Source: an uncultured Actinomycetes bacterium
GTDB lineage: Bacteria; Actinomycetota; CADDZG01; JAHWKV01
Assembly (NCBI GenBank): GCA_964501265.1
Contig: CAZCSK010000003.1
Location: forward strand, 67,480-131,479
DNA: 64,000 nt
Reading direction: 5' to 3'
Numbering within the stretch: the stretch's first letter is position 1; each line of letters opens with the position of its first letter. Positions 48,431 through 64,000 of this stretch are shown here, piece after piece. A model generated the notes under the pieces. It was given only the letters and a program-made list of their open reading frames with translations. It did no database searches and was not told the DNA's origin. Made by a program: the position numbers and the translations under genes.

Positions 48431-48520
48431 CCTCCCAACCAGGGGGCGCGTGTCTCAATTTTTGCCATTTTTTCTCCATGGCATATGCTTACCGGCGCTC
48501 ACCAATGGGAGGAAGATCGC

Positions 48521-49828
48521 ATGGTTGAACTAACTACCGACTACCCGAAGTTTCAGTTCAGTGACGAACGACTAAAGAACGGCTTACGGCTGATCATGTC
48601 CGAGAGTCATCTAGTGCCGGTGGCCGCTGTCAACCTCTGGTACGACGTCGGCTCCAAGAACGATGCCCCCGGTAAAACGGGCATCGCTCATCTTTTCGAG
48701 CACATGATGTTCGAAGGCTCAGCGAACGTCACCAAAGGTGAGCACTTCAAATTAGTTAACTCAGTAGGGGGAACGAACAACGCCTCGACCTCGACCTTTC
48801 GGACCAACTACTTCGAATATGCTCCCTCGCATAATCTCGAGATGCTGATGTGGCTAGAAGCAGACCGCATGGGCGGCCTACTCCAGGCCCTGAGCCAAAA
48901 GACTCTGGACAATCAGCGCGATGTCGTAAAAAACGAACGACGCCAGGTAGTCGAGGACGTGCCTTATGCGATATGGCAAGAAAAGGCCTTCGAATTACTT
49001 TTCCCGGAGGGTCACCCCTACCGTTACCCAATCATCGGCTCCATGGATGATCTCTCCGCAGTTTCGCTAAAGGACGTCAAGGATTTCTTCAGCAATCACT
49101 ACGCTCCCAACAATGCGGTACTAAGCATCGTGGGGGACATTGATCCCGCCCAGGTACGCAAGTGGGCGGAGAAATATTTCGGCAAAATCCCGGCGAATCC
49201 CAAGATTCCGGCGCTCCGAGACCTTGAGCTGCCCTTCTCCCTCGGGGGCGAGGTGCGCGAAACCATCCGTGACAGGGTGCCTTACGCGGGCGTTTTCATG
49301 GCGCACAGGTCCCCTGGGATTGAGACCCGAGAAGACGACGTACTGACAATGGCCGGCGCTGTCCTTTCTTTCGGAAACGGAAGCAGGATGCATCAACGCT
49401 TGGTGCGAGAAAGAATCACTCTTGCCGCGGGTTTCCAGACTTTTTCACAACCTGGGGTCTCCATGAGCTACGCCTTTGGCATTGCCAACCCCAGCATCTT
49501 CGAGGACCGAGTCGAGCAGGGATTAATAGCACTCATCGACAGCCTCAAAACCGAACCCGTGAGCGCAGATGAGTTGGCCAGGGCAAGAGCACAGGTCGAA
49601 CGATCCTTGATCGACGGTTTGACAACAGTCGCGGCCAGGGCCGATTGGCTGTCGCAGCACGCCACAATCTTTGATGACCCGGGCAAGGCCAACGAGAAAC
49701 TCGATGACCTGATGAGCGTCACCGCAGACGAAATCCGTGACGTTGCAAACGAGATCCTCGTTAAAGAAAACCGAGCCGTGATTACTATCTTGCCCAAGCC
49801 ACCCAAGCCCAAAGCACGGAACAAGTGA
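48521..49828 (+). CDS. M16 family zinc peptidase (active subunit, HxxEH inverzincin motif)
   Basis: HLFEHMMFEGS zinc-binding motif. GGGAGGAAG RBS before the ATG at 48521. Confidence 0.75.
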   Translation: MVELTTDYPKFQFSDERLKNGLRLIMSESHLVPVAAVNLWYDVGSKNDAPGKTGIAHLFEHMMFEGSANVTKGEHFKLVNSVGGTNNASTSTFRTNYFEYAPSHNLEMLMWLEADRMGGLLQALSQKTLDNQRDVVKNERRQVVEDVPYAIWQEKAFELLFPEGHPYRYPIIGSMDDLSAVSLKDVKDFFSNHYAPNNAVLSIVGDIDPAQVRKWAEKYFGKIPANPKIPALRDLELPFSLGGEVRETIRDRVPYAGVFMAHRSPGIETREDDVLTMAGAVLSFGNGSRMHQRLVRERITLAAGFQTFSQPGVSMSYAFGIANPSIFEDRVEQGLIALIDSLKTEPVSADELARARAQVERSLIDGLTTVAARADWLSQHATIFDDPGKANEKLDDLMSVTADEIRDVANEILVKENRAVITILPKPPKPKARNK

Positions 49829-49840
49829 GGAGACCCCTAG

Positions 49841-51232
49841 ATGCCGGCGCTACCTAAACTGATCGCAAAGACTCCAACAGAGGGAACTCCAAAGACGTGG
49901 AAATTCCCTGGCTTCACTAGAACACAGCTCGATTCAGGCTTCACGATCATCGTCGCCAATGCTCCGGGTCGTACGCTCGCAGTTGCCCAGCTTCTTCTCG
50001 ACGCTGGGGCGAGCAACGAAAAAGCCGAAGAAGGTGGCGTGGCCAACATCACCGCTAACGCGCTACTCGAGGGCACCGATAACCACAAAGGCGAGAAGTA
50101 CGTACAGGCCTTGGAGCGTCTAGGGGCGGACATTGACGGGGGGGCAAACTGGGACTCCTTCGGGCTGAACCTGCGGGCCCCAGTAAGCAGACTGGAGCCA
50201 GCACTCGAACTCTTGGCGGAAGCGGTTCGCAGTCCGGAGCTGCCCTGGCGCGAAGTCGACCGCCTCACGCAGCAAACAGTTGGCGGAATCATGCAGGACT
50301 ATGCAAGCTCAGCCAGCCGCGCGACGATTGCATTCAACAAGCTGATATATACCCCTTCGTCACCATACTCCCGCTCGGCTGGAGGCAGTTTCTGGTCCGT
50401 GAGCACGATGGGTAAAAAGAGCGTCAAGAAGTACTACGAGCGGTTCGCCGCTTCAAGCTCGGCGACGCTCGTCGTGGTCGGAGACCTAGAGGGTGTTCCA
50501 GTCGAAAAAATCGCAGAGAAACTCTTTGGGGGCTGGAAAGGCAAGGACCCGGAGCGGACGCAACTACCGGTAGCCGAGAGCCTCAGACACACCTCTGCGC
50601 TGCTCGTCGAACGGCCTGACTCGACCCAGTCTCAGATCGCGATAGGCCACGTCGGAGTTTCGCGCTCGTCGCCGGACTACCTGCCGGTCCAGATGGTAGC
50701 GACTGCCCTCGGAGGCCTTCCCGACTCCCGTCTCAACCGGAAGCTGAGGGAGGAAAAGGGCTTTACATATGGCATCCAAGCTGGGTTCGACTTCCGACGA
50801 CAGGCCGGACCCTTTCGAATCAGTACGTCAGTTGACACCAACAAAACAGTAGATGCGATTGCAGAGATAGTGAAGGTCCTTGAAAAAGTCCACGATGAAG
50901 GCATCACCAAACAAGAACTCGAGTTGGTAAAAGGCTTTCTCACTGGCATCTTTACCCTTCGTTACGAGACGCCCGAGGCCATCGCATCGGCACTTTCAAG
51001 CTTGGTTACCTATGGGCTACCTGACGACTACTACGCAACCTACAGAGAACAAGTGCAAGAAGTGACGCTAGACGATTGCAATCGGGCCGCGGCCGAGTAC
51101 CTGCATCCCGATCGACTGGGTATCGTCGTGGTTGGCGACGCCAAAAAGGTGCGCGATCCACTCCACTCTGCTGGACTTGGGACTGTGGCCTACATCGAAG
51201 ATCCAGAGCCTGGGAATCCTCCGACACACTAG
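49841..51232 (+). CDS. M16 family peptidase-like protein (non-catalytic partner, no HxxEH)
   Basis: Same fold-level composition as the upstream M16 but lacks the inverzincin motif; typical M16B pair arrangement. Confidence 0.6.
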   Translation: MPALPKLIAKTPTEGTPKTWKFPGFTRTQLDSGFTIIVANAPGRTLAVAQLLLDAGASNEKAEEGGVANITANALLEGTDNHKGEKYVQALERLGADIDGGANWDSFGLNLRAPVSRLEPALELLAEAVRSPELPWREVDRLTQQTVGGIMQDYASSASRATIAFNKLIYTPSSPYSRSAGGSFWSVSTMGKKSVKKYYERFAASSSATLVVVGDLEGVPVEKIAEKLFGGWKGKDPERTQLPVAESLRHTSALLVERPDSTQSQIAIGHVGVSRSSPDYLPVQMVATALGGLPDSRLNRKLREEKGFTYGIQAGFDFRRQAGPFRISTSVDTNKTVDAIAEIVKVLEKVHDEGITKQELELVKGFLTGIFTLRYETPEAIASALSSLVTYGLPDDYYATYREQVQEVTLDDCNRAAAEYLHPDRLGIVVVGDAKKVRDPLHSAGLGTVAYIEDPEPGNPPTH

Positions 51233-51290
51233 CTTCGGCCCACAACACCAGTCAGAATTGGTAAAAACTGAGACACGCGCCCCCGGGAGA

Positions 51291-51793
51291 TTAGGAGCGG
51301 GCTGACAGTTGAACTATCTGCTTGGCTGCTGCGTCTAGATAGACGAGCACTTGTTTACCTGGCTCGGGTGGCGTCACGCCCTGCGCCAGTTTCAGTACGG
51401 TGCCGTCGGCGAACACTGCACGGCCCTTGGCGTCTAATTTGTTGAAGACTCCCGAATACACGACCCTTGGATCTGAGCCGTCTTTGGGTACGACGCCGAT
51501 GCCAGCCACCCATAGGGCCACCTTTGCTTTGTTGACCCCAACGTGAACGTATCGATCTTGCCAGTGGACGAGCGGCGTGACTGTATGTTCATTGGTTGTA
51601 AAGCTCTCGACGCTCTTGGAGATTTCGTACGTCCTGGCGCCATCAAGTGTGATGCTTTCGAAGGTGACAGCGGTAACGACACCTTCATCGGATGGTACGC
51701 GCGGTCCTTTGTCGAGGATGCTCTCGAGGGCGGGAGGGGTTCGCGCGCACGCTATCGCTAGGAGAAAAACAAGAACAGAGAACCTGCGCAATC
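51291..51793 (-). CDS. Probable lipoprotein, unknown function (167 aa)
   Basis: TTG start giving MRRFSVLVFLLAIAC; the ORF-track 5' extension to 52130 rejected (it overlaps the upstream gene). Last gene of the minus-strand supraoperon. Confidence 0.45.
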
Positions 51794-51795
51794 GA

Positions 51796-52815
51796 CTATG
51801 CCGCGGGAGTAACCGTTGAGGTCGAGATTTCGGATGTCTCCTGCGGCGGGGGTGCTGCGTCCGGTGCGGCTTGCGGGCCGAAGATTCCTCGGAGCGGCGC
51901 GGTGAGGGCCGCCGCTGGCAGGACGATCGCCAGCTTCGTATCGCCAAGACGCGAAATTTCAAAGAACATCGTTCGAGGACGGATCGGCTCGCGGGCTTGC
52001 CCCGCTCGAACTGCCGCAAGCAACTGCAACGGATAGCGCGGGCCGTCTCCACGCGCGGCCCGCTTAAAATCCTTGTGAGTCTCGAAGTCAATCTCCTCAG
52101 CAACTTTGATGACCTTGCCGTCAAGCACATAGAAAGACATCTTTCGAAAATGGGCTATTCCCGGCAGTGAGCCGGACGAGCCGCGAGTGCTTCGGGCAGG
52201 CAGGTTGGGAGGTATTACATCAAAGCGCTTGACCCCCGCGTCCTCATTGGGGTGCTCAAAGGGGTCTTCTCTGGGGAAATAATCGGGGCTGTCCTTGTTG
52301 AATTCCACAACACCGGCTGCTTCGGAAATTGACCGCCGAAAATACTGGAATGCGTAGATGGAATCGAGGATGAAATTCTGCCCCACCTGGATAACGCCGC
52401 TGCGGTCGCGGGGTGCGAGCACCGGGGGGGCCCCAGCCGGATCAGAGACCCATTGTCCCGCCTGCAGGGTCTGGGCGACTTTCTTGCTTCCGGCCACCTC
52501 GAGACCCTGAGCTGAGGGCACTTTCGACACATCGGCCACCCGAATGGCTATCGTGTCGTCGGATATGTATTCCTCGAACACTTCCGTATCGTTGAACGTC
52601 AGAAGGGCTCGAGCCCGAAGGTCGTCTTCAACTTCGCCAGTCACTACGGCTTTGCCGGCAGGAGTATCGTCGGTGTAGCTGAAAGCGTGTGGGAGACCCT
52701 CCGATGCCGCCAGAAACTTGAGCACCTTCTCTTCCGCTGTTTCGTCTCTGCTACCGCAGGCAGCGCCAAGCACAATGAGAGTCAGGCAAACTAAAACTGC
52801 AACGAGGCGGCGCAT
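51796..52815 (-). CDS. Probable lipoprotein, unknown function (339 aa)
   Basis: MRRLVAVLVCLTLIVLGAACGS signal + Cys. Start trimmed from 52914 to 52815. Confidence 0.45.
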   Translation of the reverse strand: MRRLVAVLVCLTLIVLGAACGSRDETAEEKVLKFLAASEGLPHAFSYTDDTPAGKAVVTGEVEDDLRARALLTFNDTEVFEEYISDDTIAIRVADVSKVPSAQGLEVAGSKKVAQTLQAGQWVSDPAGAPPVLAPRDRSGVIQVGQNFILDSIYAFQYFRRSISEAAGVVEFNKDSPDYFPREDPFEHPNEDAGVKRFDVIPPNLPARSTRGSSGSLPGIAHFRKMSFYVLDGKVIKVAEEIDFETHKDFKRAARGDGPRYPLQLLAAVRAGQAREPIRPRTMFFEISRLGDTKLAIVLPAAALTAPLRGIFGPQAAPDAAPPPQETSEISTSTVTPAA

Positions 52816-53321
52816 TATTGCAGTTCCAGGGCCACTACTTTGCGCAACAAAGTCCGCGGAAATTCGTAGTCCTGGTGGATGGACAGAATGAACATTCCTC
52901 TGCCGCGAAACCACACAAAGATGTTTTGCTTGTTGCCAGCGGTGGAACTCACGCTTGTGTCCCCCACGCGAAGCTGCGACGGCGTTGTGCCGCCCAGCAG
53001 CGCTGCGATCGATTTGCGGAATCCTTCGCTCTGGGGCCGAGCGAATCTAGAAAGACGGCTCACTTGAAGAGTTGCCCGCAATAGTTCGTCATCGCGCATC
53101 GAGAAAAGCCCGTTTGAGTCGACATATGACTGTTTGATTCCAACCGCTTCCTTTCTGATGTCCTCCGGCTGCACAACAAGGCCCAGAATCTGCTTGGGAA
53201 TCCGAATACCCGATCCTTCGACGAACCCAGCACCGGTGTCAGCCGCCTTCGAGCATCCGGCGGCAACAAGCAATGCGGCACAGGCGAGGGCGACGGCGAT
53301 ACGCGCCGTTGTCTTCCTCAT
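52815..53321 (-). CDS. Probable lipoprotein, unknown function (168 aa)
   Basis: MRKTTARIAVALACAALLVAAGCS signal + Cys. ATGA overlap with the upstream gene. Start trimmed from 53405. Confidence 0.45.
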   Translation of the reverse strand: MRKTTARIAVALACAALLVAAGCSKAADTGAGFVEGSGIRIPKQILGLVVQPEDIRKEAVGIKQSYVDSNGLFSMRDDELLRATLQVSRLSRFARPQSEGFRKSIAALLGGTTPSQLRVGDTSVSSTAGNKQNIFVWFRGRGMFILSIHQDYEFPRTLLRKVVALELQ

Positions 53322-53845
53322 TGAACGGTCAGTTTGGCCCGGATAAAGCCCGCGGCTCGGTCGGTGATTTCCCAGGTTCCGGTTTGTCCAAATGTCTGAG
53401 ACCAAACCGCCCCCGGTTTCATCGGCCCCGAGTCGAAAGCGCCCGAAGCGGTGAAACTGCGGATCGGGCGGCCATCAGTGCGGTCCTCGTTTTTCACCCG
53501 CAGAGTAAATCCCACCGGCATCGTAAAGTCCTGGCCAAGTTCTTTGTTGGGCCCGAACGCGTAGAAGGGACTTTCCTCGACCAGGAAGACGTCAAAGAAC
53601 TTTTCGTCTGGCGCTTTCGTGGGTGCTACTGTCGCGGCTGTTGGCGATGGATTGCCGACACCCAGCTTGTCAGTTGGCTGCGGTGAGGGCTCAGGCGACT
53701 TGCACTCGCCAAGCCGGCACGCAGGAGTTGCATCACCGATCTTGTCCAGATCGATGTCGCCCCCGATGCTGTTGGGTTTTCCGCACGCTGCCCCTATCAT
53801 CGCCAAACAAGCAACTAACACTGTCCATCGCTTCATACTTCTCAT
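53318..53845 (-). CDS. Probable lipoprotein, unknown function (175 aa), beta-rich C-terminal domain
   Basis: MRSMKRWTVLVACLAMIGAACGK signal + Cys. 4-nt overlap with the upstream ABC fusion gene. Confidence 0.45.
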   Translation of the reverse strand: MRSMKRWTVLVACLAMIGAACGKPNSIGGDIDLDKIGDATPACRLGECKSPEPSPQPTDKLGVGNPSPTAATVAPTKAPDEKFFDVFLVEESPFYAFGPNKELGQDFTMPVGFTLRVKNEDRTDGRPIRSFTASGAFDSGPMKPGAVWSQTFGQTGTWEITDRAAGFIRAKLTVQ

Positions 53846-56835
53846 GTTAGGGCACCCGAGCGTTTAATGGCCTCCTCGGAGGTCCCCAGGTACGCCTGGA
53901 TCAGTCGCTCATCGTTCAATACCTCGGCTGGTTGACCGCGCATCAGCACCTTGCCTTGAATCATTGCGACTAGCTCGTCGGAGACGGCCGAGATCAGAGG
54001 CATATCGTGCTCGATTATCAGCATGCTGCACCCCGTCTCGAACCTCACCCGACGAAGGAGTGGCGCAAGCCCCTCCGACTCGGCCTGGGCGATTCCGGTT
54101 GAAGGCTCGTCAAGCAGAAGCACTTTGGGCTCGGCCGCGAGGACGCAGGCAAGGTCGGTGATTCGGCGCAAACCAGTGGAGAGTTCACGCACAAATTTGT
54201 CGCGATATCCCCCAAGGTCAAGCAGTTCGATAAGCCTGTCTGCCCGTAATCGGATGCGGCGCTCCGCCTGTCGCACCTGCGGTACCTGCAGCGCGGTCAG
54301 GGCCATATTGCGAACTTCCAACTTGGGCTCTAGAGCGACAAGTAGGTTTTCGTAAACCGTAAGAGCCGGAAACAGTCTGGCGTCCTGGAAGCGTCTCACC
54401 AAACGCAATTTTGCCCGCTCGTCCGGACGCAGCGAAGAGATGTCGTTCCCATCAAAGATGATCTGGCCCTCGTCGGCGAACTGAAATCCACAAATGATGT
54501 CGAACAAGGTGGTCTTGCCAGCTCCGTTGGGCCCTATCAGCCCGAGTGCTTCGCCCTCACGAAGATCGATACTCACATCCGTCAGAGCGTCGATCCCGCC
54601 GAAACTCTTGCTAATCGAGCGAACCTGCAAGACGGGCCGCGCTTCAGCCAGTTCGAACTGCCGCTGCTCGCGTGCAGACCGCATTGCGCCTGCGGGAGCG
54701 CCATCCGTAAGTGCTCCGGTTCCCTTGACGTAGACAGCGCGCAAGATGTCGGGGCGGCGCATCAGTTCCTCGGTTTTGCCGATGAACTTAACTTCACCCT
54801 TCTCCATGAAGATCGCATGTTCCGCCACTGTCAATGCGACATTGACCGATTGCTCGACGATGATGATCGCCGTTCCCTGGCGGTTGATCGCCCGAACGAC
54901 TTCGATGAGTTGGCCCACCATTGCTGGAGACAATCCCAACGACAGTTCATCGATCATCAATAACTTTGGCTTGGAAAGAAGGGCTTGAGCAAGTGAAAGC
55001 ATCTGTTGCTCTCCGCCCGAGAGCAGACCTGCAAGTTCACTTCCCCGCTCCTTGAGGATTGGGAAAAGCCGGTGAACTTCCTCCATACGCGTCTTCGCGT
55101 CGGCCTTGTCGCTGGACATCCAACCGCCGAGTTCCAGGTTCGCCTTCACCGTCAAACCAGGGAAAACGCCACGCCCTCCAGGCATGTGGATAACTCCTCG
55201 CTGTGTAATCTCGTGAGGAGGCATGTGTGTTATGTCGCGACCGTCGTGAACGATGGCACCTGAAGATGCCTCCTGGGTGCCGCTGATGGCGCGAAGCAGC
55301 GTGGACTTGCCTGCGCCGTTGGTACCGAGTAGGGCAATCGTCTGACCCTCTTCGACATCGAAGTCCACGCCGAAGAGCACCTGTACGTTGTCGTACGCCA
55401 CATCCACATCGCGGCAAACAAGCATCTTGCCTTGGCCCGACGCCTTGGCATAGCGCCATTCCGCCGATGCCGACTGACTGGCCTCAGCCGATCTGACATC
55501 TCTTGCGTACTTGCCTGCCGCACTCAGACTTATCAGGCTTGAAAGGACGATGAAAGGCGTCGCGAATCTAAGAGCTCCTTGAATACCAAAGCGCTGAATG
55601 ATTTCAGCCACGGCGAAAAATTGAATAACGTTCGAAGGGATGCCGGTTAGAACGAAAAGCGACCCACCCTGCGTCCTCACGTGCGCGGGAAGGATGTTCG
55701 CTCTCAATACTCCTCCGGCAGGGCCCAGGAGCGCGCCGCCGATGCCGAACACAATGCTGCTTGCGATAAGTACCGGAAGAGGTGGTGCCGCCGCCAAGAC
55801 CAAAAGAAAGAGTGCCGAGGCGACCCCAAGGAGCCCCGAATACACGAGTACCCGCTGGGGTCGGTAGCGGAGCAAGACATCGATAAGTCCGCCTGACAGG
55901 AAGCCGAACGGCAGCAAGACAAGGGTGATGGCAATGCTGATGTATGCGCGCTCCTTGATACCGAGCCCGTACTCGGCCCTAAGGAACTGCGCAAACAAGA
56001 GCGCATAAATGTAAGTGCCAACGTTGCCCGGAATCGCGGCAAGGAAGAACGTGCGAATGGTCCTGATCGCCCATATTGTTCTGAAGGCCTCGCCGAAGCT
56101 AACTGGCTCCTCAGGTTGGCGCGCCTCCTCCTCGGTGGCGCCGTTTGCTCTCCGCTCCATGTAGCCCCTAATTGGTTCCTTCAGTCCGATGAAAGCGAGT
56201 AGCGTGGCGGCAATCATCAGCGACCCCGAAACCACGAATGGTGACCGCCAACCGAATGTGGTGACCAGATAGACAATGAGCAACGAAGTGGTAACGCTAA
56301 TTGCGTCGAAGGTCACTCCGAATAGGGCGAAGACCTTTCCACGGGAGGTCGCGGGATAGTAGTCGGCGATAAGCGAGGAAATCGGAATTCCGCGAATCTG
56401 CGATCCTAGGTTGTCCCCCATTCGAGAAAGGGCAAGCGGAGTGAGGGAGTACGAGCGCGCTGTAAACAACGAGAAAATGCCACCCAGCGCCGTTCCAATG
56501 GCAACTAGTGGCACCCTCTTATGACGGTCTGCGTAATAACCCAAGCCCAGCGTAGCGAAAATCAAGACAAAACCTGTAAGGCTTGTGGCCTGCACAAGGC
56601 GACTGAGTGTGATTTCCAAATCTCGAATGATCTCAGGAGCGGCCGCACCGAAAATGCCGCCGTCGAAAGCGCTGACGATCCCGAGTAGGACAAAAACCAA
56701 GATCGGCTTCAGGCCGTAAGGAGTGTTTTTAAGTTCCTTGTAGTTCGCGGCCTCTTTGAGCGTGCGCTTGAAGCTGAGTTTGCCCACGGCAAGGGTGCTG
56801 GGCCGGCCCGCGGAAGCATCTTTGACTTCACTCAT
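53842..56835 (-). CDS. Triple fusion: MFS-like 12-TM domain + LivF-type NBD + LivG-type NBD
   Basis: 997 aa. N-terminal hydrophobic domain with MFS-like GYYADRHKRVPL. First NBD Walker A GTNGAGKST (LivF-like), second NBD GLIGPNGAGKTT (LivG-like); each has LSGG signature and Walker B. Confidence 0.65.
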   Translation of the reverse strand: MSEVKDASAGRPSTLAVGKLSFKRTLKEAANYKELKNTPYGLKPILVFVLLGIVSAFDGGIFGAAAPEIIRDLEITLSRLVQATSLTGFVLIFATLGLGYYADRHKRVPLVAIGTALGGIFSLFTARSYSLTPLALSRMGDNLGSQIRGIPISSLIADYYPATSRGKVFALFGVTFDAISVTTSLLIVYLVTTFGWRSPFVVSGSLMIAATLLAFIGLKEPIRGYMERRANGATEEEARQPEEPVSFGEAFRTIWAIRTIRTFFLAAIPGNVGTYIYALLFAQFLRAEYGLGIKERAYISIAITLVLLPFGFLSGGLIDVLLRYRPQRVLVYSGLLGVASALFLLVLAAAPPLPVLIASSIVFGIGGALLGPAGGVLRANILPAHVRTQGGSLFVLTGIPSNVIQFFAVAEIIQRFGIQGALRFATPFIVLSSLISLSAAGKYARDVRSAEASQSASAEWRYAKASGQGKMLVCRDVDVAYDNVQVLFGVDFDVEEGQTIALLGTNGAGKSTLLRAISGTQEASSGAIVHDGRDITHMPPHEITQRGVIHMPGGRGVFPGLTVKANLELGGWMSSDKADAKTRMEEVHRLFPILKERGSELAGLLSGGEQQMLSLAQALLSKPKLLMIDELSLGLSPAMVGQLIEVVRAINRQGTAIIIVEQSVNVALTVAEHAIFMEKGEVKFIGKTEELMRRPDILRAVYVKGTGALTDGAPAGAMRSAREQRQFELAEARPVLQVRSISKSFGGIDALTDVSIDLREGEALGLIGPNGAGKTTLFDIICGFQFADEGQIIFDGNDISSLRPDERAKLRLVRRFQDARLFPALTVYENLLVALEPKLEVRNMALTALQVPQVRQAERRIRLRADRLIELLDLGGYRDKFVRELSTGLRRITDLACVLAAEPKVLLLDEPSTGIAQAESEGLAPLLRRVRFETGCSMLIIEHDMPLISAVSDELVAMIQGKVLMRGQPAEVLNDERLIQAYLGTSEEAIKRSGALT

Positions 56836-56844
56836 CTTTGGCTG

Positions 56845-59190
56845 TCACTCCTGTTCGGTCGTTGGCTCGGTGATGTCGACAAGGCCCGCAGACTCCTCGT
56901 CTTCGGCCTGGATGCTCTTGGCTGCCCCGCCGAAGGCTCGCTCTTCACTGTTCTTGCTCGGCCCGCCGCCCAACATCTTGCCGCGCTCGCCGTAAAGCCC
57001 AGAAATACCCTTATACCGCTGATGGACAGGCAAGAGGGCAAGTCCGGAGTTCGGAATCGTTTCCGCAAGCGGAATAAGCCGTCGGGCTAACGCCAGTGGG
57101 TCGTAGTCGGCAAACAGGCTCGGCACTACCAGTTGCCTTCTTTGAGCGATGATTCGCAGTATCCCGTCGCGAAGACCAAACAGAAGCGAAGCCAGGCCGC
57201 CGGGCGCGAAGTAAAGCAGGGCCAAGACGCCGACGCTACCAACCAGGAAGGGCAGAGAACCAGTCGTGGGCAAGAACTGGGTAAGCGCAAAATAGCCCGC
57301 TCCCAGCAAGGCGCCCGGAACCGAACCAACCCCTCCGACTACGGTGAAGAGGAATATCTGGAAGCCCAAGAATGGGTCAAAAGAGGACTCAGCGACAGCC
57401 CTTTGGTGAACCGCCAGGAGAACTCCGCAGAAACCGCAGAGCAGCCCGGAAAAAGCGAATGCTGCAAGTCGCGTCCTTACAAGATTGACGCCGAACGATT
57501 GAATATTGGCTTCATTCTCCCGAGCAGCGATCAGCACCCTGCCAACCCTACTGCGCCGAAGCACCGACACCAGCGCGATAGCCAACAGCAAACCGCTTAG
57601 AGCAAGGTAATACATGCTTCGCTCATCTTCGAAATCAATAAATTGAAACAAGCTCGGGCGATCGACGCGGTCGGGCAAAAGCCACCCGAAATATTCCTCC
57701 TTAAAGAGCGTCGCGTTGATGGCGAAAGCAAATGCGGTAGTAGTGACTGCCAAGAACAGGCCTTTGATTCGCAGGGCCGGGAAACCAACGAGAACCGCGA
57801 AGACAGCAGTCAGGATTGGAGCGAGGGGTAGTGCTACCCAGAAAGAATATTTCGAGGCAATGGCTCCGCCTATGACTGCCCCTACCGCAACAAACGCGAA
57901 TTGGCCAAGGCTCACCTGCCCGGCCCACCCCGTCAGTACGACCAACGACAGCGAAGTTATGGCAACAATCAGTAGATAGCCAGAAAGGTTCACTTGGCGG
58001 GGCGAGAGAACGAACGGAAGACCGACGAGGGCCAAGACTCCAACTGCAATTAGGGCCCGCCGCCACACCCGCACTCCACCAACTTCCAACATCTCCTTGG
58101 GGGTGGCTCGCTGCTCCTCGGTAGCCTTCCAAGCCGTCGTTTCGCCGGCCTCACTTCTAGTTACGCGACGGCGCTGGAACAGGAGCGCCCCAATGATCGC
58201 GAACAACATCCCAACCTCCAAGAGCGCCAAATGTTGTTCGTAACTCCACTTGACCGCCTCGCGAAGAACAGAAAGCCCGATTGCCGAGGCAATAGCAATC
58301 GGAAAGCTGTACATCCTGGCAATGACGGCCGCCGCAAGCGCCCCCAAAAGCACCTCGGGGGAAGAAATTCCTGAACTAAAGCTCCCCGAAACGCCGCCCG
58401 TAAGAATTACCCCAAGGCCCGAGAGCGCTCCCGCGATCGTCCATACCACCATCGAGAGCGTCCCAACGTTGATTCCTAAAAGGCGCGCCCGTTCCGCGTT
58501 CTCCGAGGAGGCACGAATGGCATACCCGAGCCGCGAGTACCGCAGAAACAGCACCAGCGCAATCATCGCGGCGACCGAAGCGAAGATGGCGAACAGATGA
58601 GGAAACCCGAAGCTCAGTCGGTTCGAACCAATTTGGAATTTGAAGTCGTTGAAAGGAAACGTCACAAGCACTTGCCCTTGGATTTGCTCCACCGTGCGGT
58701 CCGCGGGCGGTGGGAAGATGGGAAGCGTGGTCACGTATCCAATCGCTCCCCCGAGCACGCCGAGAGTCGCGATAGTCAGTACCGTAAGCACAAGCCGCGG
58801 GGCGTTGAAGAAGCGCCTGATAAGGGCGATCTCTATAAGGAAACCAAGGAATGCTGACACGATCACGCCGCCCAAAGCAGCCAAAAGGAATGGCCATTTA
58901 TTGAGAACGGCGAGATTGTAGGTAAATACACCCCCAGCGGCGCCAAGGGCGCCTTGGGAGAAATTGATGATACGGGTTGACCTGTAAATGAGAACGATCC
59001 CGACGGCAATCAAACCCGTAAGAAGTCCTGCAATCAAGCCCTGAAATAGGATCGCCAGGGGGGTTCCGTTCTCGGAACCGGTTCCAGGTAAGACTAGCTG
59101 GGTGATGACCAGAACACCGGCGCCAGCAGCTACTCCGATGACAATCGACCGAATCTTCTCGCTCTTGAGGCCCAGGGCGGCGGTAGCCAT
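56845..59190 (-). CDS. Fused LivH/LivM-type ABC permease (781 aa)
   Basis: Two tandem polytopic Liv-permease-like domains separated by a charged linker; paralogue of 13554-15542. Confidence 0.7.
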   Translation of the reverse strand: MATAALGLKSEKIRSIVIGVAAGAGVLVITQLVLPGTGSENGTPLAILFQGLIAGLLTGLIAVGIVLIYRSTRIINFSQGALGAAGGVFTYNLAVLNKWPFLLAALGGVIVSAFLGFLIEIALIRRFFNAPRLVLTVLTIATLGVLGGAIGYVTTLPIFPPPADRTVEQIQGQVLVTFPFNDFKFQIGSNRLSFGFPHLFAIFASVAAMIALVLFLRYSRLGYAIRASSENAERARLLGINVGTLSMVVWTIAGALSGLGVILTGGVSGSFSSGISSPEVLLGALAAAVIARMYSFPIAIASAIGLSVLREAVKWSYEQHLALLEVGMLFAIIGALLFQRRRVTRSEAGETTAWKATEEQRATPKEMLEVGGVRVWRRALIAVGVLALVGLPFVLSPRQVNLSGYLLIVAITSLSLVVLTGWAGQVSLGQFAFVAVGAVIGGAIASKYSFWVALPLAPILTAVFAVLVGFPALRIKGLFLAVTTTAFAFAINATLFKEEYFGWLLPDRVDRPSLFQFIDFEDERSMYYLALSGLLLAIALVSVLRRSRVGRVLIAARENEANIQSFGVNLVRTRLAAFAFSGLLCGFCGVLLAVHQRAVAESSFDPFLGFQIFLFTVVGGVGSVPGALLGAGYFALTQFLPTTGSLPFLVGSVGVLALLYFAPGGLASLLFGLRDGILRIIAQRRQLVVPSLFADYDPLALARRLIPLAETIPNSGLALLPVHQRYKGISGLYGERGKMLGGGPSKNSEERAFGGAAKSIQAEDEESAGLVDITEPTTEQE

Positions 59191-60173
59191 CAGGACCTAA
59201 AGTATTCGGGTAGAGGAGCGAAGATATTCAGCGCGCCAATGTTTTGGGTTGTTGTGAGTCTGGCGCTGGACTCAAAAACGTTCTCGAATGCGATGTACCC
59301 ACCAAATTGAGTTGCCACGGAGTAGTTGTAATCGATTGAATAGCTTGTCCCGCTGGGAGCCGTGTATTGCTGATCACCGTCCACGAACCAGCTGTCTATC
59401 ACGACGCCGCACACATCCACCCGCTTGCGACCTGTGACTGTGCCCGTCTGCCTTAGCACTGCCAGCGACCCGCCATCTACTCCCGCATTGTTGTCGCCCA
59501 GGGTTAGGCCGGCTCGCACTGGCAGAGGGAGAATCTTAATGGATGGCTCAGGCGTGAAGGTTGTAGGGGTCCTGTCGTCAAGGCTTGAGTACTCACTGAT
59601 TCTGGTGAGAAATATTCCGTCGGCGCTCCCCCCATCCTGAACGATTTCAAAGTCCTGAACTATGACCCTGAACTGTCCTCCACGAACTCGGAATTCGCCC
59701 ACCCAGAATCTGGAGCCAGTAGCCGTTACTTGCCGGATTCCACCGATTCCCTTGCCGCTGTCGGTGGTGCTGGTCTGAGTCACCCCTTGAGCATTGGTGG
59801 TCGTAACCGTTGCTCGCCATCGATACAGGCCCTCCTTTGGCAAACCCTTGACCGAGGTGGAGGCCTCCTCTTCGGGAAAGGTCTGATCTGAAGCTTTGGG
59901 GCAAGACTCCTGAGGGGGTTGCGGGGGCTTCGTCACAACGGCCTTAGTGGTTGGACTAGGACTCGGCTTGCTTGCCTCCTGCACTTCAAACTCCCCGAAA
60001 CTCGGAGGAGCCACCGGCTCAGGAAGCGGGGGCACTCCGAAGACGAGACCGGCAGTGACGGCCTTCACCGCAACTCCCGATGGCGGAATCTTAAGGCACG
60101 CCGACAAGGCGAAGATCACAGACGTCAAAAGAAGGGCGGATGCCCGACGGCTACGCAGCTTTGCGCGAGACAA
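59190..60173 (-). CDS. Lipoprotein, unknown function (327 aa); not a recognisable Peripla_BP_6 SBP
   Basis: Canonical lipobox FALSAC after a basic N-terminus. Pro-rich linker then beta-rich domain. Overlaps the TgpA-like gene 3' end by 23 nt. Confidence 0.45.
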   Translation of the reverse strand: MSRAKLRSRRASALLLTSVIFALSACLKIPPSGVAVKAVTAGLVFGVPPLPEPVAPPSFGEFEVQEASKPSPSPTTKAVVTKPPQPPQESCPKASDQTFPEEEASTSVKGLPKEGLYRWRATVTTTNAQGVTQTSTTDSGKGIGGIRQVTATGSRFWVGEFRVRGGQFRVIVQDFEIVQDGGSADGIFLTRISEYSSLDDRTPTTFTPEPSIKILPLPVRAGLTLGDNNAGVDGGSLAVLRQTGTVTGRKRVDVCGVVIDSWFVDGDQQYTAPSGTSYSIDYNYSVATQFGGYIAFENVFESSARLTTTQNIGALNIFAPLPEYFRS

Positions 60174-62409
60174 CTTTAAGCTCCCTTCTCGACGGTGCGT
60201 TCAGCGTAGGGGCGTAGGGATGACGCAAGGACAATTTGGAAATTATTGCAACGGCTCTGAGGGTAACGGTGTGGGCTTGGCCCATCCGCCGTCTGAGGGC
60301 ACGGGAGAGTTCTTCCGCTGCAGCCGCATCCTCGACAGTGACCTGTTCCTGCAGATCTCCCCACAGAGTTCGAGTTACCAACCATGCGAGTTCAGTGTGC
60401 TCGTCGTCTGGAATCACGCGGTCCAAGAACATGAGCGGCGTATCTCCCTGATACCGATATCCAAAGTCTGTTGCGAGATCTCGAAATTCGGCATATGCAA
60501 GCCCGATCCTTTCCCTTACTCCACTCTGTAGCGCCCACGTGCGGCGCCGCGCCCGACGATAGGCCTTGACGACCCCGGGTATTGAGAAATAGATGATGGC
60601 GATCAGCGTGATAAATGGCAAGGCCACCAGAACTGCGTAGCGAATCTGCTCGAACAAGAATCGCTCGGGGTCGGTAGCCACGGGGAAAAACACCTTGACG
60701 GATATGTCATCGCTGGGAAGTAGGTTGCGATCCGCCTGGGTCTGGTCTGCGCCTATGTTGGTGGTCGACTGGCGTGGAGTTCCGATGATCGGCAGCCACT
60801 TGTAGCCAGTGAAGTAAACCTCAAGAAAAGAGGCGCCATGCTTGGGACGTACCTCGACCACGTCCCCCACTCGGTCACCCCCATCAAATCCATACCCCAT
60901 GCGCGAGGGCACTCCAGCCCACCTGGCAAGCATGGCCTGTCCAGCAACAATCTCGTATGGGGTGCCCTTGTGACTGCCCGCAAGCATGTCCTGCACCCGA
61001 TCCGGCGGCACTGCCTTCGGTCGACCCTGGCCGTCCGCTATAACGATGTCCAAGAACTCGTTGCGGACGAAGTCGAGTCGGTCCCACAATGGCTCTTTTG
61101 GCGCCTTCGCAAGAAGGGCCCTCACTGCTGGCGGAGGGTCGGGAATTTCAAGAAACTGACCGATGGCCTTTGGTGGATCTGCGTTCACATTTTGCAGTTC
61201 CTCAACGGTTGGGATGCGCGCGGCGGTAACTGTGTATTTCTGGCCCGCCTCAACCTGGCCTTCAGCGAGTCGGATAGTCCCGGCCCTTTTGTCGTAAGCA
61301 AGGAATGGGCCGTCGGCGACAACTCCAGCAAGGTTTGGAAGTCCGGGGAGAACGGCGCCCTCCATATCGACGATTTCGAAGGAAGCTTTGATGCCTTGGG
61401 ACAGTTCACTGTCGACGATGCCGGACGGGTCAACTTCTTCAATCTGGCTGTCCTTAAATGCCGGCAATCGCCACTCTTCGCCATCGTACACATCCAAGCC
61501 TCCCATGCGCCAGGGACCCGTGATCGACGACTTCGCGGTAAAGAGAACCCGGTCGCGAACGTTGTCGAGCGGGATGTATTTGGGCTTCTGGGCCTCCTGC
61601 GCGGGGTCGTATATGGGAGGCGGAAACAAGAAATCAGTGTTCAGAGCCAAGAACCCGAGCGCTCCAGTGATCCCGAGAATCAGAGGGACTGCTCGGGCCG
61701 CTCGCCGCAGTTCGTATCCTAAGGATCGCTGCTCCGCATCGCCGGTGATATCGACCCCGGAGAGAAGCCCAAGTCCCACCGCAAACATGGCGAAGGCAAT
61801 AAGACCGCTAACAATCTTGGCGTTGCCGGGAACGCTGATCGCTGCAATCATAACAACGGGCAAGGACGAGAGGATGCCAAGCGACGGCCGCCGGAGTTCA
61901 ATTGCCACCCAAGCCCCCGCGAACCCTAGTCCACCCATCAGCCAACCCACGATTGCGCGCCATCCCAAATCGAAGGGCACCGGCGGGCGTAGCACATCGC
62001 CCGACGTCACTGACCGCCTCACGAAGGCCCCGAGGTCGACTATGTCGTTGAACGATCCGGCCGGCAAACTGATGATGACTCCGGCCATGACAATCCCGCC
62101 AATGATTGCAAGATTGGAAAGGATCGCATTCTTTAGACGACGCGCGAGGATTGCTACTGCGATGCCTATAAGTCCGGCGATGGCTGCCCAGAACCTCGGT
62201 GTTATTCCCTTGAAAATGCCGCCCACCATGACGGCAGCGGCCAGGATTGGAAACGCCATGACTATCCCAAGGCGCAATGCCGGGATCGGAAATTCCTGTT
62301 TTTCTTCTTCGAAGACGAGGTCGCCCTCGGGACGCTCTTCCTCGAGATGCTCTAACGCGTGTTCCTCGAGTTCCTCCAGTTCGGAATGCGCTTCGCCGCG
62401 AAGCGCCAT
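60151..62409 (-). CDS. TgpA-like transglutaminase-domain membrane protein (DUF3488 N-terminal TMs + transglutaminase-like core + DUF4129-like C-terminus); catalytic Cys apparently absent
   Basis: About 6 N-terminal TM helices. Core region GTPYEIVAGQAMLARWAGVPSRMGYGFDGG aligns to TgpA G-x-C-E-x-F...G-I-P-A-R-x-V-x-G-Y but with no Cys. Follows DUF58 and MoxR genes as in the canonical triad. Confidence 0.6.
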   Translation of the reverse strand: MALRGEAHSELEELEEHALEHLEEERPEGDLVFEEEKQEFPIPALRLGIVMAFPILAAAVMVGGIFKGITPRFWAAIAGLIGIAVAILARRLKNAILSNLAIIGGIVMAGVIISLPAGSFNDIVDLGAFVRRSVTSGDVLRPPVPFDLGWRAIVGWLMGGLGFAGAWVAIELRRPSLGILSSLPVVMIAAISVPGNAKIVSGLIAFAMFAVGLGLLSGVDITGDAEQRSLGYELRRAARAVPLILGITGALGFLALNTDFLFPPPIYDPAQEAQKPKYIPLDNVRDRVLFTAKSSITGPWRMGGLDVYDGEEWRLPAFKDSQIEEVDPSGIVDSELSQGIKASFEIVDMEGAVLPGLPNLAGVVADGPFLAYDKRAGTIRLAEGQVEAGQKYTVTAARIPTVEELQNVNADPPKAIGQFLEIPDPPPAVRALLAKAPKEPLWDRLDFVRNEFLDIVIADGQGRPKAVPPDRVQDMLAGSHKGTPYEIVAGQAMLARWAGVPSRMGYGFDGGDRVGDVVEVRPKHGASFLEVYFTGYKWLPIIGTPRQSTTNIGADQTQADRNLLPSDDISVKVFFPVATDPERFLFEQIRYAVLVALPFITLIAIIYFSIPGVVKAYRRARRRTWALQSGVRERIGLAYAEFRDLATDFGYRYQGDTPLMFLDRVIPDDEHTELAWLVTRTLWGDLQEQVTVEDAAAAEELSRALRRRMGQAHTVTLRAVAIISKLSLRHPYAPTLNAPSRRELKVVSRKAA

Positions 62410-63770
62410 TACCGGTTACCTGCGCCGATGTCGTGGTACAGGGCAGTGGCAAGATCCTGTCCCGGATGCACAGAGGAAACTTGGCATCCAAGCGAAGCCG
62501 CTCGTCCGACGGTGTCGGCATTCTCGTCGTCCCACAAAAGCGCTATCACTAAGATTGAAATGCCCTTGTTCAAAAGGATGCGGAGTTGGGCCGCAGCCGT
62601 TATGTCGAGTTTCGGCGTGATCAGAATGTTGTGAGCATCGCGGCGCGTATCCGAAATCTTTCGCGTGATCGCCTGAGTCAACGGCTCACGACCCATTTCA
62701 ACACGAGCGAACGCGTCGAGAGCGCGCAGTTGCGTTTCCGCGCCACGCATGTGCCGCGTCAAGGGACCACCATTCGCCTCGAGGCGAATCTCATAACCCT
62801 CGCGCAAGTGGCGGACGGCAAGCGAAGCAGCGGCCCGCACACCGGTTTCAAAAGATTCCGAGTGGTCGCCGTCTTTGGAGTGGGAGCCACGGTCGGTATC
62901 CAAAATTATCGTGACGTGGTCGGTGATGCCCTGCTCAGCTTCGCGAACCATCAATTTCCCCGTGCGGGCAGATGCACGCCAGACAACACGCCGCAGGTCG
63001 TCGCCACGCACGTACTCGCGCATTCCGTAGAACTCAAGGCCAGAAGGCCACGGTTTGGACACCGGTGGGCGGATGGGCGGGTCTTCGTACTGGCGAGTTA
63101 AGGGGCGGTCTGACACAAACTCGATGCGCGGGTGAACCATCAATTCGAACTTCTCTGCGATCACGTTCTCGCGCTCGGTCAGGCCTAGGGGGTCGCTTGT
63201 TACGGCAACCAGGGGGCCTACTTCGTACACACCACGCCGACTGCAACGCAAACCGTAACGGTGAGAAACAGTGCGGTCTCGGGACAATTTGGGAATAGGC
63301 ACCTTGACCTTGGTTCCTAGCCGCTCCGGAAGCCGTTCTTCCAAAGTGAATGCGCCAATCCGGCGCTTTGCTGTGAGTTGCACCTCCACCTCCATGCGGT
63401 CTCCCTCGCGGGCCCGGGGGTAAAGACCAGCACGGATGCCTTCAAGTTTCAGTTTGCGTGGCGCCAACAAGTAGCTCGTCACGACAAGAAGAAAGGCACC
63501 GTAAGCAAACAGATAGAGGGCCTTGCCCGCAACAATAAAGGCAACTAGCCAGGTTAAGAGGGCAGCGACGATGGCCAGAACGCCCGAACGCGTAAGTCCT
63601 ATTTTTCGCTGGACGGCCTGGGAAACGAGCCTTATGTTGTGAGGCGCAAGCACCGCGGTTGTTCGGTCGACGAAAAGAAGAAACTTGCCCTTCCGACCTA
63701 TGCTGGTCGCGATTTTGCGCGTGGGAGTCTTGCCCTTCTTGGTTTCGCCCGACCTAGACAGCTTTGCCAA
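62409..63770 (-). CDS. DUF58 (vWA-like) domain protein
   Basis: DUF58 signature EFYGMREYVRGDDLRRVVWRASARTGKLMVRE. N-terminal TM helices. TTG start with GAGGAAGGAAA RBS. Confidence 0.7.
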   Translation of the reverse strand: MAKLSRSGETKKGKTPTRKIATSIGRKGKFLLFVDRTTAVLAPHNIRLVSQAVQRKIGLTRSGVLAIVAALLTWLVAFIVAGKALYLFAYGAFLLVVTSYLLAPRKLKLEGIRAGLYPRAREGDRMEVEVQLTAKRRIGAFTLEERLPERLGTKVKVPIPKLSRDRTVSHRYGLRCSRRGVYEVGPLVAVTSDPLGLTERENVIAEKFELMVHPRIEFVSDRPLTRQYEDPPIRPPVSKPWPSGLEFYGMREYVRGDDLRRVVWRASARTGKLMVREAEQGITDHVTIILDTDRGSHSKDGDHSESFETGVRAAASLAVRHLREGYEIRLEANGGPLTRHMRGAETQLRALDAFARVEMGREPLTQAITRKISDTRRDAHNILITPKLDITAAAQLRILLNKGISILVIALLWDDENADTVGRAASLGCQVSSVHPGQDLATALYHDIGAGNR

Positions 63771-63813
63771 GTTTTTCCTTCCTCACCTACTTACTTGCTT
63801 ACTTGGACTTTAG

Positions 63814-64000
63814 CTATGACTTGGACTTGCCGCCACCGCTCGGAGGCTTCACCTTGCTCACGAATCGCTCGATGGCCGCGTCGATGGTCTCGCCTCTTAG
63901 TATTGCATCAGGATTCAAAATAATCCTGTGCGAAAGGATGGGCACTAAGACCTGCCTAACATCGTCAGGATAGACATCTTCTCTTCCATCGCTCGCGGCA
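63814..64000 (-). CDS. MoxR-family AAA+ ATPase, C-terminal fragment (gene continues beyond window end)
   Basis: Translation of the minus strand gives ...REDVYPDDVRQVLVPILSHRIILNPDAILRGETIDAAIERFVSKVKPPSGGGKSKS*, matching the MoxR C-terminal lid region. Confidence 0.55.
   Translation of the reverse strand, partial: AASDGREDVYPDDVRQVLVPILSHRIILNPDAILRGETIDAAIERFVSKVKPPSGGGKSKS

Follow-up and report, generated by a model that had tools for sequence, protein, structure and literature searches.

A conserved gene block of uncultured Actinomycetota that may join a MoxR-DUF58-TgpA-like triad and five lipoproteins to a Liv-type ABC importer

MRP-type MoxR ATPases encoded together with DUF58 proteins and TgpA or VWA partners are common across bacteria and, to our knowledge, hardly any clients of such triads have been defined. 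Of the described contexts of the triad, the nearest are a TgpA operon that stands alone and, in Bifidobacterium, the PFNA cluster (PMC8430577). Among transport proteins, binding proteins of the LivK type can bind fatty and dicarboxylic acids (PMC3223731), the mycobacterial LprG-Rv1410 pair, in which a lipoprotein works with a protein of the major facilitator superfamily (MFS), moves lipids (PMC10576003), and a bacterial Spinster homolog, HnSpns, is represented by PDB 6E8J (PMC10243590). Here we describe a gene block on a 64,000-nucleotide stretch of DNA (the window) from an uncultured Actinomycetes bacterium (assembly GCA_964501265.1, contig CAZCSK010000003.1, positions 67,480 to 131,479), in which a triad of this kind is followed on the same strand by the genes of an ATP-binding cassette (ABC) importer of the Liv type and of five lipoproteins. 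From its sequence, the block is taken, with slightly better than even confidence, to encode one layered envelope transport system composed of an ABC importer core and an accessory shell. Every part is a member of a known family or similar to one, and the combination matches no described system found in the literature; searches on TgpA, MoxR and DUF58 and on a link between the triad and an ABC transporter returned nothing relevant, which agrees with the first-pass annotation of this DNA, where the system had been regarded as not described as such.

The minus strand carries, from 51291 to the window end, a single co-directional and unbroken block, as read from the open reading frame (ORF) list and the sequence and as the first-pass annotation had stated. 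The same annotation had counted 12 genes; the block has 10 in the window, LivH and LivM being one fused ORF and the MoxR gene, truncated by the window end, being present as a fragment. The window is 100% identical to a Logan/NCBI contig, and the corresponding locus in our collection (L077) extends past window coordinate 64000. From the triad toward the end of the block the features are the following (aa, amino acids; LP, lipoprotein; NBD, nucleotide-binding domain):

63814..64000, minus strand: 3' end of the MoxR gene (MRP-type AAA+), the last 61 codons and the stop, the remainder lying past the window end
62409..63770, minus strand: DUF58 protein, 453 aa, TTG start; Pfam DUF58 6.4e-10
60151..62409, minus strand: TgpA-like membrane protein, 752 aa; TgpA_N 4.8e-12, Transglut_core 3.4e-5
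59190..60173, minus strand: lipoprotein LP1, 327 aa, TTG start, lipobox LSAC; recognised from sequence, no family match
56845..59190, minus strand: fused LivH-LivM permease, 781 aa; BPD_transp_2 1.8e-54, two stretches in a single ORF
53842..56835, minus strand: MFS-NBD-NBD fusion, 997 aa, one ORF; MFS_1 6.1e-27, ABC_tran 2.9e-60 (two stretches)
55456..56835, minus strand: MFS domain of the fusion, residues 1-460; MFS_1 6.1e-27
53842..55428, minus strand: the two NBDs of the fusion, LivF/UrtE-like at residues ~470-705, then LivG/UrtD-like at ~733-990
53318..53845, minus strand: lipoprotein LP2, 175 aa, lipobox GAAC; no family match for the window protein
52815..53321, minus strand: lipoprotein LP3, 168 aa, lipobox AAGC; orphan family
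51796..52815, minus strand: lipoprotein LP4, 339 aa; modelled LolA/LolB/LppX/LprG-like fold with a C-terminal extension and a disordered tail
51291..51791, minus strand: lipoprotein LP5, 166 aa, TTG start, lipobox AIAC; orphan family
51270..51283, minus strand: weak terminator-like hairpin directly 3' of the LP5 stop; consensus scan

The tight packing noted in the first pass is borne out, with gaps of at most 43 nucleotides (nt), three overlaps of 1 nt, two of 4 nt and one of 23 nt. The largest gap (43 nt) separates MoxR from DUF58; the DUF58 and TgpA-like genes overlap by 1 nt, the TgpA-like and LP1 genes by 23 nt (17-20 nt in the orthologous clusters) and LP1 and the permease by 1 nt. A gap of 9 nt lies between the permease and the MFS-NBD-NBD fusion, followed by overlaps of 4 nt between fusion and LP2 and again between LP2 and LP3, an overlap of 1 nt between LP3 and LP4 and a gap of 4 nt between LP4 and LP5. 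A consensus scan for promoters and terminators gave no sites above shuffled expectation inside the block; the hairpin at 51283-51270, as a possible 3' end of the operon, is only suggestive, because such sites overall do not exceed that expectation. The composition of the block is uniform with that of its surroundings.

The conservation of this arrangement was followed at 74 loci, retrieved from species-representative genomes with an alignment of the MFS domain (A1), all of which lie in metagenome-assembled genomes (MAGs). The hosts are mostly Acidimicrobiia and other Actinomycetota, with three Dormibacteria and one Nitriliruptorales; two further loci (L014 and L064) come from MAGs labelled Burkholderiales, their sequences group with the actinobacterial loci and they are probably mis-binned. 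The recurrent order, established by tblastn with the window proteins, is MoxR-DUF58-TgpA-like-LP1-permease-fusion-(LP2)-LP3-LP4-LP5 and was found in about 56 loci of what is here called subfamily 1; it is kept down to ~47-50% identity of the fusion protein, across phyla and with flanks that are not conserved. The first-pass annotation had proposed a coherent unit, as opposed to a triad and a transporter at unlinked loci in related genomes, and it is this linked arrangement that recurs. The M16 (insulinase-type) peptidase pair that lies convergent with the cluster in the window (48485-51232, plus strand) is absent from all related loci, and since this flank is found in none of them the conserved block has defined edges.

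Two subfamilies can be told apart by the fusion protein, which is 46-90% identical in subfamily 1 and ~36-44% in subfamily 2 (e.g. L061-L072). Component counts were restricted to loci with flanks long enough to judge. In this set the permease is present at 49/49 loci of subfamily 1 and 11/12 of subfamily 2, and the candidate binding protein described below as X at 26/29 and 6/6. The triad is frequent in subfamily 1, with MoxR at 32/41, DUF58 at 39/42 and the TgpA-like protein at 44/45 loci, and was found at none of seven loci of subfamily 2 (0/7 for each of the three). The lipoproteins follow the same distribution: LP1 42/48 against 0/9, LP3 47/48 against 1/10, LP4 45/46 against 1/10 and LP5 35/45 against 1/10, the counts for LP1 and LP5 being limited by BLAST sensitivity; L066 is the sole subfamily-2 locus with lipoprotein matches (LP3-LP5). 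A divergent LP2 ortholog occupies the LP2 slot in 23 further loci. MoxR is absent from the cluster in 9/41 subfamily-1 loci, and five related MAGs have DUF58 without MoxR in the cluster.

Second, old copies of the cluster were found in two genomes, L010 relative to L005 (JAHWKU010000002.1) and L045 relative to L023 (DATLBX01 contigs). The copies are 42-63% identical per component, those of JAHWKU lying in tandem. The duplicates retain the TgpA-like protein, LP1, the permease and the fusion, together with LP2-LP5 in L010 and LP3 and LP4 in L045 (the others being undetected by BLAST); they are without a MoxR or DUF58 of their own, and L010 has its own X. Because subfamily 2 carries the transporter and X without the triad, permease, fusion and X are taken as the transporter core, which with X as binding protein would be ancestral and self-sufficient, and triad and lipoproteins as an add-on shell. 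The duplicates without MoxR-DUF58 and the clusters with DUF58 only further give an order of coupling, from the core through the TgpA-like protein and the lipoproteins to DUF58 and then to MoxR, which fits a first shell of structural partners and a MoxR that is catalytic and acts in trans. The linkage of the triad to the transporter seen in the first pass thus holds in subfamily 1 and is hierarchical, being absent from subfamily 2, together with the lipoproteins, and incomplete in the duplicates.

Domain content and presence in both subfamilies show the core to be, as judged from sequence, a binding-protein-dependent importer of the Liv/HAAT type. The permease has at least 16 transmembrane (TM) helices and a cytoplasmic tail of ~100 aa, and NCBIfam models assign its N-terminal half to the LivH/UrtB-like and its C-terminal half to the LivM/UrtC-like proteins. 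The NBDs match UrtE (1.8e-90), UrtD (2.2e-87), LivG (4.7e-84) and LivF (2.3e-78) in NCBIfam; both have intact Walker A, Walker B and switch residues, with the signatures LSGGE in the first and LSTGL in the second. Two polypeptides, a LivH-LivM protein of 781 aa and an MFS-LivF-LivG protein of 997 aa, therefore stand in place of the four Liv subunits, and this is the same in all homologs examined. The MFS-NBD-NBD fusion, which the first pass had singled out as unusual, is real and is not peculiar to this genome: it has at least 341 homologs, and all 120 of those listed carry both MFS_1 and ABC_tran (55-90% identity, 877-1088 aa). Literature searches on MFS-ABC fusions and on LivG/LivF with a fused MFS found no relevant description.

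The MFS domain has ~12 TM helices, seen as 11 TM peaks and a weakly hydrophobic TM4, and its central loop and linker are strikingly conserved, the family-specific loop reading REPxRGYMERR...EPxSFGEAWRTIWAIRTLRR. When the MFS profile (A1) was compared with PDB sequences, the best match was HnSpns (6E8J, the Hyphomonas Spinster homolog, E 1e-17), followed by SLC37A4, QacA, EfpA, EmrB and NorA, with human Spns1 also matched; the best-scoring stretch of HnSpns is confined to the N-terminal half of the domain (profile positions 14-166). No chain of the Rv1410 type was among the 42 solved MFS relatives at E<=0.01. With this domain attached to ABC-importer ATPases, one complex combines the fold of a secondary transporter with a primary transporter.

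None of the five lipoproteins is a binding protein of the Peripla_BP_6 type by Pfam and PDB profile searches, as had been claimed, and the statement that the block has no such protein holds inside the window; candidate relatives are, however, encoded divergently upstream of MoxR, past the window end. There, beyond window coordinate 64000, three tandem paralogs, here called X, occupy positions 1-5043 of L077 (minus strand). X has ~618 aa, the three paralogs are 59-65% identical mutually, and in each of them a linker rich in Pro and Ser joins one N-terminal TM helix to an extracytoplasmic, Cys-rich domain of ~500 aa. X adjoins the cluster in 48 loci and is directly divergent from MoxR or DUF58, at 160-460 nt, in 27 loci; in subfamily 2 an X homolog lies directly downstream of the fusion gene on the same strand. 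Two X proteins of subfamily 2 score above the Peripla_BP_6 gathering threshold (5.8e-8 and 1.5e-7, model positions 22-255 and 24-308 of 343), a third matches Peripla_BP_4 (3.4e-4), and the X families of subfamilies 1 and 2 are homologous by hhalign (probability 100%, E 9.6e-62, 438 columns). Given these matches and this homology, X is very probably a highly divergent, membrane-anchored relative of the type-I binding proteins, and it would then represent a new branch of that class overlooked by standard annotation. Profiles of all X and of subfamily-2 X gave nothing significant against PDB sequences, and among all ORFs of the 77 loci phmmer with LivJ/K as queries detected no canonical binding protein on which a broader profile could be built. 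The occurrence of several X genes per cluster fits the usual pattern of multiple binding proteins for one permease. The segment LPSALNLPQxNPxTxLEYAPVPP, which follows the TM helix, is present in 15/15 aligned X of subfamily 1 and in 0/7 of subfamily 2, and is a candidate docking site for the shell.

The triad order, an MRP-type MoxR followed at 43 nt by a DUF58 protein, is present in the window block. The translation of the MoxR fragment ends in ...IERFVSKVKPPSGGGKSKS before the stop, identical to the end of the 345-aa MoxR of L077, for which Pfam gives AAA_3 (8e-61) and AAA_lid_2 (7.7e-23). The DUF58 gene has the same length in the window as the gene called in L077; in its product a basic N-terminus precedes a hairpin of two TM helices (peaks at residues 64-80 and 87-103), and from this arrangement the C-terminal DUF58 domain is predicted to be cytoplasmic, beside MoxR. 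The TgpA-like protein has the TgpA architecture of a multi-TM TgpA_N domain and a transglutaminase core (Transglut_core, 24.5 bits against a cut-off of 23), and in its predicted topology ~7 TM helices at the N-terminus lead to a domain on the outside, after which one more TM helix returns the chain to a basic cytoplasmic tail. The domain identities put forward in the first pass were thus recovered for MoxR, DUF58, TgpA_N, Transglut_core, BPD_transp_2, ABC_tran and MFS_1, and not for DUF4129, which has no Pfam match in the TgpA-like protein at E<=0.01, the tail (GDTPLMFLDRV...LWGDL) being similar by eye only.

Aligned with P. aeruginosa TgpA (6G49), the window protein has Pro in place of the nucleophile Cys, Ala in place of His and Ile in place of Asp; the pairwise alignment is weak (E 0.43), with unambiguous motif columns. 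The same replacements run through the orthologs, with Cys to Pro in 48/48, His to Ala in 43/48 and Asp to Ile or Val in 45/48, and the motif around the lost catalytic site is highly conserved in these 48 proteins. With the Cys-His-Asp triad replaced, the TgpA-like protein is, by its sequence, a pseudo-enzyme from which no transglutaminase or protease chemistry is expected, and its core is presumably a binding or scaffold domain.

Each of the five lipoproteins has a signal peptide that closes in a lipobox Cys, and by a simple rule a lipobox is found in most of the LP1-LP5 orthologs as well; the window proteins gave no Pfam or NCBIfam match. LP1 has a Pro-rich linker and a domain predicted as all-beta with a conserved Cys pair (invariant C66 and C230); its annotation in the source assembly is shortened to 292 aa, with loss of the signal peptide, which the orthologs P0129-P0131 retain. 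The C-terminal domain of LP2 shows a cupredoxin-like beta-sandwich pattern without the Cys or His copper ligands (alignment A13), and 2/11 of its orthologs match Cupredoxin_1 (best E 3.4e-5). LP3 is the best-conserved small lipoprotein (47/48 loci). Ahead of its lipobox AIAC, LP5 has no in-frame start other than the TTG that lies 4 nt past the LP4 stop, and its orthologs have 143-163 aa. Structure prediction, which the first pass had suggested for these proteins, was informative for LP4, whose model (pLDDT 65.8) is an open beta-sheet half-barrel closed by helices and has a LolA/LolB/LppX/LprG-like fold, and failed for LP1, whose AlphaFold2 model (pLDDT 41) is unusable for a fold search. No Pfam or NCBIfam match places the LP4 sequence in LppX_LprAFG, LolA or a related family; its profile found 321 proteins at E<=0.001 among 1.84 billion representatives, all hits being unannotated, a number far too small to include the large LolA and LppX/LprG families, so that LP4 has no membership in them by sequence. 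Profiles of LP1, LP3, LP4 and LP5 gave nothing significant against PDB sequences, and by hhalign LP3 and LP5, as well as LP1 and LP4, are unrelated. A concatenated LP1+LP4 query returned no match among 5.8 billion proteins, probably because Pro/Ala low-complexity words swamped the candidates; the cleaned concatenated alignment found only 14 close homologs, and the AlphaFold2 alignments are therefore shallow.

A working model of the layered system can be drawn from these parts. The TgpA-like ectodomain and the five lipoproteins are predicted to form the outside face of the shell, toward the wall, and the DUF58 adaptor and MoxR its cytoplasmic face. Outside the cytoplasm, the lipoproteins and the dead transglutaminase domain would act as a scaffold or as a chain that hands ligand over to X; X would bind the ligand and dock on LivHM, and the LivF and LivG domains would power uptake by ATP hydrolysis. 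The tethered MFS domain, with a putative transport role, might serve beside the ABC membrane domains as another conduit, or carry out a step of flipping or counter-transport. MoxR may assemble or remodel the complex by way of DUF58 and the tail that the TgpA-like protein extends into the cytoplasm, and could act in trans on the duplicated copies. A more specific version, which we consider tentative and rather doubtful, makes the MoxR-DUF58-dead TgpA trio a dedicated AAA+-driven device that assembles or gates the hybrid ABC-MFS transporter; force would then pass from the cytoplasm via DUF58 and the TgpA-like protein to a lipoprotein chain that includes the LolA-like carrier and delivers a lipophilic cargo to X.

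Several points weigh against reading the block as one layered system. The reading is built on genomic context and on similarity of fold and sequence, and all carriers are uncultured MAGs. The loci were gathered through the MFS domain and the fusion protein, so that the association is one-directional, from transporter to triad and not the reverse, and the clusters from which MoxR is absent leave it with a role that may be generic. X of the window type has no Pfam or PDB match of its own, and X of either subfamily gave no significant hhalign result with E. coli LivJ/K; the LP4 model is of moderate confidence only, and LP1, LP3 and LP5 are without an assignable fold. The most direct alternative is that two independent systems share an operon, namely a generic envelope-maintenance triad and an ordinary Liv/Urt importer for amino acids or urea, with the lipoproteins as unrelated passengers. 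The triad does stand alone in many bacteria, examples being TgpA of P. aeruginosa and the PFNA cluster of Bifidobacterium (PMC8430577), subfamily 2 has the transporter core without it, MoxR is missing from 9/41 clusters, and the NBDs score highest against UrtE, UrtD, LivG and LivF. We nevertheless judge this alternative unlikely, given the co-occurrence of the TgpA-like protein (44/45), LP3 (47/48) and LP4 (45/46) with the transporter through ~50% divergence, in two phyla and between unconserved flanks; moreover, the overlaps of 23 nt (TgpA-like/LP1) and 1 nt (LP1/permease) fall on the module borders, the TgpA-like protein and lipoproteins were duplicated together with the transporter, and the uniform inactivity of the TgpA-like lineage fits a structural role tied to a partner.

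The other alternatives concern what the machinery does. A lipid or glycolipid exporter, or an envelope-building machine comparable to LprG-Rv1410/LppX, in which the MFS domain would extract a lipid and pass it to LP4 while the ABC part energises or regulates the step, also seems improbable: BPD_transp_2 permeases, NBDs of the LivF/G type and a cognate relative of binding proteins are importer hallmarks, subfamily 2 keeps the fusion and X without any LolA-like lipoprotein, LP4 has no sequence link to the LppX/LprG families and the solved MFS relatives at E<=0.01 include no Rv1410-type transporter. What speaks for such an exporter is that HnSpns is the closest solved relative of the MFS domain, with EfpA also matched, that the LppX/LprG/LolA fold of LP4 shares an operon with an MFS domain as in the mycobacterial pair (PMC10576003), and that the transporter is surrounded by five lipoproteins and an envelope-associated triad. 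It has also to be considered that the system could be a scavenging importer for hydrophobic amino acids or peptides released by envelope proteases, with the lipoproteins and the TgpA-like protein binding polymers or the wall and the MFS domain serving as a low-affinity route. HAAT is the family default; nearby in the window lie three metzincin-like lipoproteins, a peptidase of the S9 family and the two M16 peptidases, and metzincin-like lipoproteins occur near the cluster in ~7 other genomes, TldD/PmbA pairs at 11-15 loci and S8 subtilases at 5. These protease neighbours, however, vary by clade, are absent from most loci and possibly reflect shared neighbourhood ancestry, TldD/PmbA is cytoplasmic, X has no detectable similarity to LivJ/K, and the LolA-like carrier and Spinster-like domain are left unexplained. 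We hold scavenging to be slightly less probable than lipid export. Hardly any weight is given to an anti-phage or conflict system built on the MoxR- and ABC-type ATPases. Its traces are a weak bpMoxR Pfam match on MoxR (3.1e-8, far below AAA_3) and generic PADLOC ATPase matches on the NBDs, but the PADLOC matches represent P-loop similarity only, with none for DUF58, the TgpA-like protein, LP1 or X, all parts are membrane-bound or extracytoplasmic transport machinery and the composition is that of the surroundings. A defence reading is effectively refuted, PADLOC having given generic ATPase matches only (MoxR and the NBDs).

Should the more specific version with the AAA+-driven device be true, the transporter would be the first defined client of the widespread MoxR-DUF58-TgpA triad, and monoderm-type actinobacteria would have a new class of uptake machine that spans the envelope. 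The cluster may in any event give the triad a concrete candidate client, and with a partner encoded in the same operon, conserved across phyla and co-duplicated, the target of the triad becomes directly testable. Four orphan lipoprotein families were identified, among them LP4 with its LolA/LprG-like fold. The carriers are abundant uncultured Acidimicrobiia and Dormibacteria of soil and water, on whose feeding or envelope building the system would have a bearing.

As for the cargo, a lipophilic or amphipathic compound and one derived from hydrophobic amino acids or peptides are about equally likely. In favour of the former are the likeness of the MFS domain to Spinster proteins, the LolA/LprG-like fold of LP4, esterase and acyl-CoA dehydrogenase genes near some of the loci, the binding of fatty and dicarboxylic acids by LivK-type proteins (PMC3223731) and the example of LprG-Rv1410 (PMC10576003); in favour of the latter are the HAAT family default and recurrent, clade-specific protease neighbours. 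No conserved metabolic neighbour names a substrate, since esterase, acyl-CoA dehydrogenase, TldD/PmbA, S8 and metzincin-like genes recur in sub-clades only. A carboxylesterase, an acyl-CoA dehydrogenase and an alpha/beta-hydrolase surround the subfamily-2 transporter of L063 (5009-7993 and 14690-15700), and an acyl-CoA dehydrogenase lies downstream of LP5 in L004, L006, L007 and L009; these neighbours are a weak hint of ester or fatty-acid metabolism. Within one Acidimicrobiales clade, 11-15 loci (e.g. L018, L020, L021, L053 and L056) have a TldD/PmbA metallopeptidase pair downstream of LP5, at ~15-19 kb in the coordinates of the locus, and S8 subtilase genes follow LP5 in 5 loci; the recurrence of both is probably clade-specific conservation of the neighbourhood. 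In the window, three tandem lipoprotein paralogs of 280, 324 and 282 aa (45742-48430, plus strand) are putative metzincin-like envelope proteases. The 280- and 282-aa copies have an HExxH-type zinc motif (HELGHLLGL and HQIGHLLGL), degenerate in the 324-aa copy (QEIFHLLCM); all three have a Met-turn-like SVMY or SVMH, and the Matrixin matches are weak (E 0.001-0.008). Homologs recur in ~7 other genomes at a distance of 1-2 kb from the cluster; one of these loci (L065) is of subfamily 2.

With regard to regulation, no riboswitch was detected with Rfam in the cluster or in the region of the divergent promoters, and k-mers, compared among 27 X/MoxR intergenic regions for signs of a common operator, gave nothing above shuffles. 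A sub-threshold match to group-II-D1D4-2 inside the MoxR ORF (L077 5996-6119, plus strand; 30.5 bits against a gathering score of 36, E 0.0066) is most likely due to chance. Farther from the block, the window carries genes for two neighbouring proteins with Calx-beta domains (256 and 238 aa) and after them, on the opposite strand, a gene of the S9 prolyl-oligopeptidase family (41010-44393), and an eight-gene heme cluster (31933-39753, plus strand) encoding HemE, ferrochelatase, HemA, HemC, HemD, HemB, HemL and a chlorite-dismutase-family (HemQ-like) protein. The heme cluster is that of the coproporphyrin-dependent pathway, which is typical of Actinomycetota.

Compared with the described systems, the core is closest to E. 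coli LivJ/K-LivHMGF and to Urt (HAAT, TC 3.A.1.4), with which it shares the BPD_transp_2 LivH and LivM domains, the LivF/UrtE and LivG/UrtD ATPases with intact motifs and, if X is a binding protein, one or more cognate relatives of type-I binding proteins per permease, as in LivJ/K-LivHMGF. Unlike LivHMGF, it has both membrane domains on one polypeptide and both ATPases, in F-G order, on another that begins with a 12-TM MFS domain, and it is surrounded by a lipoprotein shell and a MoxR module; unlike LivJ/K, X has ~600 aa, is Cys-rich and TM-anchored, and is too divergent to match LivJ/K or, in its window type, Pfam. Uptake of hydrophobic organic acids by Liv systems with several paralogs per transporter is known for the COG0683 (LivK-type) proteins of Rhodopseudomonas palustris (PMC3223731), which are, however, soluble canonical Peripla_BP_6 proteins of unfused transporters without an accessory shell. 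The triad has the same three families in the same order as P. aeruginosa TgpA (PA2873, 6G49) and the aaa-atp/duf58/tgm genes of Bifidobacterium PFNA (PMC8430577), and its TgpA-like protein, as in P. aeruginosa, joins a multi-TM TgpA_N domain to an extracytoplasmic transglutaminase-like core; here, in contrast, other residues stand in place of the catalytic Cys, His and Asp in 48/48 orthologs and DUF4129 is not detected at E<=0.01, and, unlike the stand-alone triads, this one is joined to a transporter by overlapping codons, its MoxR-DUF58 part being dispensable in cis for the duplicates. A lipoprotein with an LppX/LprG/LolA fold and an MFS domain in one actinobacterial operon recall the mycobacterial LprG-Rv1410/LppX (PMC10576003), from which the block is set apart by the lack of sequence kinship of LP4 to LppX/LprG and of the MFS domain to Rv1410, by the fusion of that domain to ABC ATPases, by the presence of an importer permease and a probable binding protein and by the larger size of LP4 (339 aa). 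Finally, the MFS domain shares the 12-TM MFS_1 architecture of the Spinster transporters (TC 2.A.1.49; HnSpns, Spns1/Spns2), with HnSpns as its best solved relative, and departs from them in a best match limited to the N-terminal half, in its conserved family-specific central loop and in the C-terminal fusion to two NBDs.

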